Assembly (NCBI GenBank): GCA_963666025.1
Contig: OY762552.1
Coordinates: 850,785-882,784 of the forward strand
Reading direction: 5' to 3'
Origin: an uncultured Methanobacterium sp.
GTDB lineage: Archaea > Methanobacteriota > Methanobacteria > Methanobacteriales > Methanobacteriaceae
DNA: 32,000 nt
Under the pieces are notes generated by a model that saw only the letters and a list, made by a program, of their open reading frames with translations, searched no databases and was not told the DNA's origin. Below are positions 10,001-10,435 of the stretch, one piece after another. The position numbers were made by a program, and so were the translations under genes. The first letter of the stretch is position 1, and the number at the start of each line of letters is the position of its first letter.

Positions 10001-10435
10001 ATGTTCATAAAGGTAAGAAGAGATACCCTGATTATTTTGATGTTGGCATTTATTCTTATCACATCCGGGAGGCTAATGTCTTACATGTCCTATGCTTCAT
10101 CTAATGGAACTGATCAGGGAGTTGAAATATCAGGAGTCATAGTTAAAGGAAACGACATTGTACCCACGGAATCCATTAGAACCAACATTGCCAATGTAGG
10201 TTTTAGAACTGGAAGTTATATTCAGGGAGATACCCTCATAACCAGTAAACGAAAGGTACCCTTGAATGAGGCCCTGGAAAATGCGCGTCAGGCAGCTATG
10301 CTTTCCACAATCCCAGGGACTACACTAGCACCAATAAAAGCTGCTGATGTACAATTGGATAAGAGTACTGGAATATTAACCGTTAACGTCATTGAAGACT
10401 TTTCAACAGTGCAGGTAAACAGTACTACTCATTAG
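10001..10435 (+). CDS. Bitopic membrane protein with POTRA-like (FtsQ/DivIB-like) ectodomain, function unknown
   Basis: AGGTGA SD 8 nt upstream of the ATG. It starts 37 bp after the Mur-like ligase. An N-terminal basic stretch is followed by one TM (LIILMLAFILITS). A segment of about 95 aa follows with a beta-alpha-alpha-beta-beta pattern: ISGVIVKGNDIVPTESIRTNIA..GFRTGSYI...LNEALENARQAAM...IKAADVQLDKSTGILTVNVIE. Confidence 0.8.
   Translation: MFIKVRRDTLIILMLAFILITSGRLMSYMSYASSNGTDQGVEISGVIVKGNDIVPTESIRTNIANVGFRTGSYIQGDTLITSKRKVPLNEALENARQAAMLSTIPGTTLAPIKAADVQLDKSTGILTVNVIEDFSTVQVNSTTH

Follow-up and report, generated by a model that had tools for sequence, protein, structure and literature searches.

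The 32,000-nt stretch of DNA analysed here (the window) carries a pseudomurein operon with the gene order ATP-grasp protein, MraY, pMurE, pMurC, M763 and M764 (Table 1). It corresponds to the pseudomurein Gene Cluster 2 of Subedi et al. 2021 (PMC10117817), where the last two genes form the pair named Mfer763/Mfer764, Mfer763 being the protein of Methanothermus fervidus. A gap of 37 nt separates the pMurC stop codon from the start of M763. The rest of the window encodes NikR, HycI, aMBF1, PAN, CbiJ, a P-type ATPase, CarA/CarB, TfuA, TFE and similar housekeeping functions, and none of its genes is ftsA, ftsZ or sepF. An Rfam scan across the cluster gave no match, and no notable ORF was found in the spacer between pMurE and pMurC. 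Hits in a promoter and terminator consensus scan stayed at chance level, with a consensus of bacterial type that is unsuited to archaea.

Table 1. Positions of the pseudomurein cluster genes and of the M763 features within the window.
Feature	Position	Strand	Remarks
Ddl-like/CarB-like ATP-grasp protein	3703..4851	+	NF053643, E=3.1e-171; opens the cluster
Archaeal MraY-family transferase	5165..6241	+	NF053644, E=1.3e-169
pMurE, pseudomurein peptide ligase	6461..7882	+	NF053648, E=4.1e-222
pMurC, pseudomurein peptide ligase	8362..9963	+	NF053645, E=1.7e-240; directly upstream of M763
AGGTGA Shine-Dalgarno-like motif	9988..9993	+	7 nt before the M763 ATG; read from the sequence
M763 gene (Mfer763-family protein, 144 aa)	10001..10435	+	stop codon included; ORF list, NF053641 match
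M763 basic N-terminal tail MFIKVRRD, residues 1-8	10001..10024	+	predicted cytoplasmic; very conserved
M763 single hydrophobic helix, residues 9-31	10025..10093	+	invariant Gly23-Arg24; predicted signal anchor
M763 variable linker, residues 32-41	10094..10123	+	N-x-S/T sequon at N35
M763 POTRA-like domain (predicted), residues 42-133	10124..10399	+	AF2 model, Foldseek, HMM vs PDB, HMM vs E. coli BamA
M763 C-terminal tail, residues 134-144	10400..10432	+	variable, low confidence; second sequon at N140
Second AGGTGA motif	10434..10439	+	overlaps the M763 stop; 7 nt before the M764 ATG
M764 gene (Mfer764 family, 423 aa)	10447..11718	+	NF053642, E=3.6e-208; downstream of M763

The initial annotation of this DNA described M763 as a 144-aa protein in which a basic N-terminus and one transmembrane (TM) helix precede a soluble part of about 95 aa. 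Both the ORF and the predictions agree with that description, and all of the peptide strings quoted in it are found in the translation of the gene. Residues 1-137 of M763 match positions 1-137 of the 137-position NCBIfam model NF053641 ("Mfer763 family") with 236.3 bits (E=9.8e-71), the curated cut-off of this model being 170 bits. Two homologue searches returned 514 and 590 proteins at 58-100% identity. They included a 100% identical protein from an uncultured Methanobacterium sp. and a 94% identical protein from M. formicicum, which places the source organism in Methanobacterium. With more than 500 homologues, a full-length NCBIfam match and synteny that is conserved in 80 of 80 loci, M763 is clearly a genuine gene and no chance reading frame. 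The two genes are probably translationally coupled, since the AGGTGA motif in front of M764 shares nucleotides with the stop codon of M763.

All named matches of M763 come from Methanobacteriales or Methanopyrus. The 80 loci, taken from GTDB species representatives, all belong to Methanobacteriales and include Methanobacterium, Methanobrevibacter, Methanosphaera and Methanothermobacter. One metagenome-assembled genome is labelled Methanomicrobiales, yet it possesses the whole pseudomurein cluster. Whether the family is restricted to pseudomurein-containing orders had been raised in the initial annotation; in the searches made it was confined to Methanobacteriales and Methanopyrus, and the homologue searches gave no sign of a wide occurrence in archaea without pseudomurein. 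A search with the family HMM of 1.84 billion representatives (50%-identity clusters) yielded 29 matches, mostly fragments, and all were members of the M763 family. The sole divergent full-length cluster among them was from Methanopyrus (P0251). This search contained no sequences bridging M763 to bacterial POTRA proteins, and no bacterial POTRA protein was matched at E<=1e-3.

M764 directly follows M763 in all 80 Methanobacteriales loci and also in Methanopyrus. The order in Methanopyrus sp. SNP6 is Mur ligase, ATP-grasp protein, MraY, pMurE, M763, M764, with the start of M763 overlapping the stop of pMurE. Its M763 and M764 are 41% and 47% identical to the respective window proteins. M763 and M764 have thus stayed linked since the split of the two pseudomurein orders, and the pair turned up nowhere else in the searches. 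The neighbour on the other side is less constant: M763 was first noted as lying directly behind a MurC-like ligase, which is true of the window genome, but pMurE is the upstream gene in many Methanobacteriales loci and in Methanopyrus. The ancestral neighbour of M763 thus appears to be pMurE, not pMurC. In bacteria the corresponding gene order is murC-ddl-ftsQ, with ftsQ following murC-ddlB in E. coli. Considering that pMurE is upstream elsewhere, the bacterial parallel consists in being among the last genes of a wall-precursor operon and not in a specific linkage to murC.

M763 is strongly conserved among 84 orthologues. Between the same pairs of genomes, identity ranged from 58 to 87% for M763 and from 35 to 76% for pMurE. 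By this measure M763 is conserved equally to, or more than, the adjoining enzymes.

The family itself has been described before. Subedi et al. 2021 (PMC10117817) regarded Mfer763 as a conserved pseudomurein-specific TM protein with no detectable homology, which possibly arose de novo. Lupo et al. 2022 (bioRxiv 10.1101/2022.11.30.518518) included the pair in their cluster A as "two hypothetical proteins", of which one was predicted to be a TM protein and the other to carry a Sec signal peptide; AlphaFold was applied there to the Mur ligases only. M763 is probably their OG0001472, for which they state synteny with Murδ (pMurE); which OG number belongs to which of the two cluster genes is not entirely clear-cut. 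The initial annotation had taken the protein as not described. This does not hold for the gene family, its linkage and its restriction, all of which are published, but no assignment of a POTRA or FtsQ-like fold to the M763 family turned up in full-text literature searches. The assignment of a POTRA-like fold therefore appears to be new.

Two AlphaFold2 (AF2) models of M763 were computed. The full-length model, based on an alignment of 62 sequences (A1), had a pLDDT of 78. The domain-only model (residues 38-144), based on an alignment to which five Methanopyrus sequences were added (A2), reached a pLDDT of 92.3 and a pTM of 0.82, with all five models at 90 or above. Both models have an identical topology. 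The predicted elements are β1 (45-49), α1 (56-64), α2 (88-100), β2 (112-120) and β3 (125-132), while three short strands (72-75, 78-80 and 85-87) lie between the helices. The predicted topology is thus β1-α1-(β-hairpin insert)-α2-β2-β3, where the insert is a conserved hairpin of about 13 residues at approximately residues 72-87. The β-α-α-β-β order that had been read from the sequence pattern in the initial annotation is present in the models as the core, with the hairpin in addition.

We compared both models with 350,542 PDB chains using Foldseek. For the domain-only model, 49 of the 50 best matches were POTRA chains of BamA, TamA, CdiB and cyanobacterial Omp85, with TM-scores of 0.51-0.52 and rmsd values of 2.5-3.3 Å; about 93 columns were aligned with E. 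coli BamA, and the best E-value of the search was 2.3e-2. For the full-length model, nearly all of the best matches below rank 1 were likewise BamA, TamA and CdiB POTRA chains, and E. coli BamA was superposed at 2.1-2.8 Å over about 93 columns. Neither model had a Foldseek match at E<=1e-3, and a TM-score of about 0.5 is borderline. POTRA proteins make up a very small share of the PDB, and for this reason the near-exclusive list of POTRA chains is not plausibly due to chance. These structural matches bear out the POTRA fold that had been proposed, and we consider it very probable that the soluble domain of M763, as modelled, has a POTRA-like fold.

The sequence comparisons led to BamA as well. 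When the family HMM built from A1 was run against 177,635 distinct PDB sequences (E<=10), four were matched. The top three were BamA POTRA constructs, with 6j09_A at E=2.0e-4, and the fourth was an insignificant match on the TM segment. The HMM built from A2 matched five PDB sequences, all of them BamA POTRA constructs, from three species (6j09_A, E=2.6e-4). In the match to A. baumannii BamA the entire domain was aligned, with query positions 43-124 on chain positions 71-149. The aligned segment reads "isGvivkGndivptdsirsnvaqaGlrsGsvi" in the family and "ISDVKIKGNSIIPTEALKQNLDANGFKVGDVL" in BamA POTRA2. The alignment places β1 of M763 on β1 and α1 on α1 of POTRA2, in a register that agrees with the structural superposition, and the shared motif is I-x-x-(I/V)-x-(V/I)-x-G-N-x-x-(V/I)-x-x-x-x-(I/L)-x-x-x-(I/L)-x-x-x-G-(F/V/L)-R/K-x-G. 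The profile similarity to POTRA is weak.

Other comparisons gave less. M763 had no Pfam match at E<=1, and none of the Pfam POTRA models PF07244, PF08478 and PF08479 scored above its gathering score. Among the 62 family members, four touched PF07244 (E>=0.25) and none touched PF08478. An hhalign comparison of the family profile with the single E. coli BamA sequence, a weak type of template, gave E=0.012 and a probability of 3.7%. The Methanopyrus orthologue on its own returned only noise from the PDB and no POTRA protein. The family alignment is low in diversity (Neff about 1.7), which lowers the sensitivity of the profile and makes the AF2 model less independent. Taken as it is, the sequence signal points to an Omp85-type POTRA and not to an FtsQ-type one. 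We see homology of the M763 domain to Omp85-type POTRA domains as an evenly balanced proposition. Membership of M763 in the Omp85 family itself (BamA, TamA, FhaC) was rejected, as the protein has 144 aa and no barrel, with nothing following its single domain.

The Kyte-Doolittle hydropathy of M763 peaks at residues 8-28, with the maximum at windows 8-11, and the full-length model shows one continuous long helix at residues 7-33. The pLDDT of this model dips in the linker (32-41) and drops below 50 at residues 140-144. Mean column conservation across the 84 orthologues was 0.88 in the N-terminal tail, 0.79 in the hydrophobic helix and 0.75 in the soluble domain, compared with 0.67 in the linker and 0.43 in the C-terminal tail. 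Invariant residues include K4, R6, R7, D8, T9 and G23, and the R-R...G-R...Y...A pattern is retained in the Methanopyrus protein despite 41% overall identity. With K4, R6 and R7 in the tail, the positive-inside rule suggests that the soluble domain faces outward, so that M763 is predicted to be bitopic with an N-in/C-out (type-II) orientation. Cleavable signal peptides usually drift in sequence. Because the tail and helix match the folded domain in conservation, a functional signal anchor is favoured over a cleaved signal peptide.

Three other readings of M763 have to be weighed, of which one concerns the origin of its fold. Following the suggestion of Subedi et al., M763 may have originated within archaea, with a β-α-α-β-β sandwich that came to resemble POTRA by convergence and a function unlike POTRA docking, such as attachment to pseudomurein or to a lipid-linked precursor. 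The marginal statistics (Foldseek E=0.02, TM-score about 0.5, no Pfam match, HH-suite probability below 4%) are compatible with this, as are the centring of the similarity on one β1-α1 motif of about 35-45 residues and the lack of any similarity for the Methanopyrus protein alone, which is without the GN motif. However, two independent approaches, a sequence HMM and a 3Di structure search, reached the same PDB family and met hardly any other fold, sequence and structure are aligned in the same register and one HMM alignment extends over the entire domain. We therefore hold convergence to be unlikely. Considerations of membrane topology bear on another alternative, in which cleavage of the hydrophobic segment as a Sec signal peptide releases a soluble, POTRA-like mature protein of about 110 aa into the wall space. 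Such a protein might act as a chaperone or wall-associated factor instead of a membrane scaffold. Without interruption, the hydrophobic core of M763 covers just some 15 residues (L10-S22); G-R comes next and then S-Y-A|S-S, a motif compatible with the -3/-1 rule, which leaves some chance of cleavage. Lupo et al. assigned a Sec signal peptide to one of the cluster's hypothetical proteins, with the gene mapping being not entirely clear-cut. Yet residues 1-31 are conserved like the folded domain, with many invariant positions, and AF2 models a single unbroken helix at residues 7-33. In addition, the textbook signal peptide of M764 fits the Sec-dependent protein of Lupo et al., and the synteny of OG0001472 with Murδ (pMurE) fits M763 as their TM protein. 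Together this makes cleavage highly improbable, and the signal anchor is the reading that we follow.

The remaining alternative is that M763 is a true archaeal counterpart of FtsQ/DivIB, namely a divisome scaffold that was inherited, or acquired by transfer, along with the mur, mraY and ddl genes and would recruit septal pseudomurein synthesis to the FtsZ/SepF ring. The defining parts of FtsQ/DivIB proteins are a TM helix, then a POTRA domain and finally a β-domain at the C-terminus, to which FtsB/FtsL bind. The predicted bitopic, N-in arrangement of TM helix and POTRA-like domain is common to both, and in the window M763 directly follows a MurC-type ligase at the 3' end of the operon, like ftsQ after murC-ddlB. 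FtsQ (8hhf_Q) also ranked first in the full-length Foldseek search (E=1.6e-3, probability 1.00), but with an rmsd of 7.4 Å, and it was gone from the 50 best matches once the TM helix was removed from the query. Likewise, residues 57-92 of E. coli FtsQ, where its POTRA domain begins, were aligned in register by the family HMM, but with an insignificant -1.7 bits, and hhalign against the single E. coli FtsQ sequence, again a weak type of template, gave a probability of 0.2%. M763 ends about 10 residues after its POTRA-like domain, so the FtsQ β-domain (FtsQ_DivIB_C, PF03799) is missing; Pfam gave no PF03799 match on M763. The window contains no ftsA, ftsZ or sepF, the ancestral neighbour is apparently pMurE rather than pMurC, and PSI-BLAST searches by Subedi et al. 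2021 gave no FtsQ, FtsL or FtsW orthologues. The "FtsQ/DivIB-like" label given to M763 at the outset is thus correct for membrane topology only. As an orthologue of FtsQ the protein was rejected, the β-domain and a sequence signal both being absent, and a true divisome counterpart is quite improbable. Instead, M763 is probably an archaeal protein with one POTRA-like domain, modelled with a hairpin insert, behind a TM anchor.

In alignment A3, the partner protein M764 shows a classical signal peptide with an invariant Ala-Thr at its end, an extracellular domain of some 370 residues that is highly conserved, and a C-terminal TM anchor with a basic tail, besides a zinc-ribbon-like Cys motif that is conserved in part. 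The M764 profile matched no PDB sequence at E<=10 and had no meaningful Pfam match. From the linkage of the two genes we infer that M764 is a candidate docking partner of M763. As a speculation, M764 might itself be among the extracellular enzymes that are still missing.

POTRA domains, such as those of BamA and FtsQ, dock partner polypeptides through β-strand augmentation. M763 combines a short basic tail, predicted to be cytoplasmic, an unusually conserved TM helix and one POTRA-like domain that would lie on the wall side; it has no catalytic signature. Just outside the membrane, this domain might bind a partner polypeptide by β-augmentation, and the co-translated, exported M764 would be the most probable partner. 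The conserved helix may contact the anchor of M764, MraY or a flippase within the membrane. Such docking could organise late extracytoplasmic assembly of pseudomurein beside the output of MraY and the flippase. On balance we lean slightly towards M763 being an extracytoplasmic docking or scaffold subunit for late pseudomurein assembly, where both the role in wall assembly and the partnership with M764 are what we infer from these features. A further-reaching version combines real POTRA homology with a domain that arrived, or was retained, with the mraY, mur and ddl genes. In that case M763 would do in archaea what FtsQ/DivIB does in bacteria, keeping the extracellular enzyme that polymerises or cross-links pseudomurein, perhaps M764, in place where the wall grows or at the septum. 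We find this version doubtful.

The cytoplasmic half of pseudomurein synthesis, with Mur-type ligases, MraY and a Ddl-like enzyme, is accepted as related to that of murein. For the extracellular half, no transglycosylase, transpeptidase or scaffold is known to us. Within the core cluster, Mfer763 and Mfer764 alone are envelope proteins that are both universally conserved and specific to pseudomurein, and a POTRA-like fold provides the first structural handle on one of them, together with a testable β-augmentation docking mechanism. On the basis of predicted structure and marginal statistics, it also revises the published view of a protein without homology that possibly arose de novo. POTRA domains are conventionally regarded as bacterial or organellar, and a POTRA-like domain in an archaeon without an outer membrane would be an unusual occurrence. 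If the homology is true, the shared ancestry of murein and pseudomurein would reach past the cytoplasmic enzymes to an extracytoplasmic scaffold, which would bear on whether a dcw-like cluster with an envelope scaffold was shared or transferred between domains. M763 is also a candidate target for methane mitigation in gut and rumen methanogens because it is narrowly distributed, highly conserved and predicted to be surface-exposed.

Among known systems, M763 is close to BamA-type POTRA domains (PF07244), especially POTRA2. These have the β1-α1-α2-β2-β3 core in common with the M763 model, and BamA POTRA domains are its best structural and its sole sequence matches in the PDB. Unlike the tandem POTRA array of Omp85/BamA proteins, which precedes a 16-stranded outer-membrane β-barrel, M763 has a single domain behind an N-terminal TM anchor, predicted to lie in the cytoplasmic membrane. 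It further differs from Omp85-type POTRA in the conserved hairpin between α1 and α2, in scoring below the Pfam thresholds, and in its host, an archaeon without the outer membrane of Omp85 hosts. With FtsQ/DivIB (PF08478 and PF03799) M763 shares the bitopic N-in/C-out arrangement with a membrane-proximal POTRA-type domain, which is a prediction in the case of M763, and both genes are found at the distal end of a wall-precursor operon beside a Mur ligase. Unlike ftsQ, M763 is not followed by ftsA or ftsZ; its partner gene encodes an unrelated exported protein of 423 aa. Between M763 and the described Mfer763 family there is no family-level difference: the position in the cluster, the adjacent Mfer764 and the restriction to pseudomurein-containing methanogens are the same, and the presence of pMurC between pMurE and M763 in this genome represents a variant cluster type also given by Subedi et al.

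The predicted membrane-anchored POTRA-like protein of the Mfer763 family (M763; window 10001..10435) was one of the best-conserved cluster proteins in a comparison of 80 loci from GTDB species representatives (L001-L080). Across genera, and over the same genome pairs, M763 was 58-87% identical, compared with 35-76% for the pseudomurein peptide ligase pMurE and 50-81% for M764, the Mfer764-family protein encoded directly downstream. For a small envelope protein that is not an enzyme, such conservation is unusual, and it suggests that M763 is under constraint at several interaction surfaces.

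Coordinates of the features discussed, in the window and in the Methanopyrus sp. SNP6 locus (L083)
Feature	Sequence	Position	Strand	Remark
pMurE-pMurC spacer	window	7883..8430		about 480-550 nt, unusually long
M764	window	10447..11718	+	features read from alignment A3
DUF356 (PF04009) gene	window	11722..12108	+	starts 4 nt past M764 stop codon
CbiJ (precorrin-6A reductase)	window	14457..15347	-	
M763	L083	7001..7456		start codon overlaps pMurE stop codon
369-aa protein	L083	8728..9837		directly 3' of M764

Upstream of M763, an ORF scan of the pMurE-pMurC spacer in the window revealed none of note, and an Rfam scan gave no match. In other genomes of the locus comparison, the two ligase genes lie 1.5-1.8 kb apart. 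The GTG start of pMurC at 8362, which was called mechanically, is probably set too far upstream, since the match to the NCBIfam pMurC model starts at residue 27 and residue 24 is a methionine.

In most Methanobacteriales loci, the DUF356 gene is the next gene after M764. In Methanopyrus no DUF356 gene follows M764, and its place is taken by a 369-aa protein for which a Pfam search returned no match; the operon may have been extended by the DUF356 gene in a lineage-specific manner. The Methanopyrus sp. SNP6 protein is probably OG0000796, a pseudomurein-specific transmembrane protein (Lupo et al., bioRxiv 10.1101/2022.11.30.518518). The whole cluster of pMurE, pMurC, M763, M764 and DUF356 was also found in a MAG labelled 'Methanomicrobiales archaeon' (L041, JBNGDB010000017.1), where the proteins were 51-68% identical to their window counterparts. 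Rather than showing pseudomurein genes in Methanomicrobiales, the contig probably comes from Methanobacteriales and was mislabelled or mis-binned. Farther along the window, the match of CbiJ to its family model falls into two stretches (1-131 and about 165-270). Between them lies an insert of low-complexity repeats (…QNEISSQNEISIEDNFTRNFTEDFTKSFTENF…), pointing to a recent expansion of the repeat within the gene.

M764, a type-I membrane protein, is an orphan. An invariant Ala25-Thr26 marks the end of the signal peptide, and a near-invariant motif, N-(V/I)-x-(V/I)-I-T-D-P-x-G...NGxAxxSxS...NMF, comes next. M764 also carries a zinc-ribbon-like CxxC...CPxxG motif; some lineages, Methanopyrus among them, have it in full, and in others it is degenerate. 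M764 might be one of the missing extracellular pseudomurein enzymes. Given this signal peptide and the motif behind it, a signal-peptidase cut before Thr26 would leave M764 with an N-terminal threonine, like that of Ntn-hydrolase or GGT-type enzymes.
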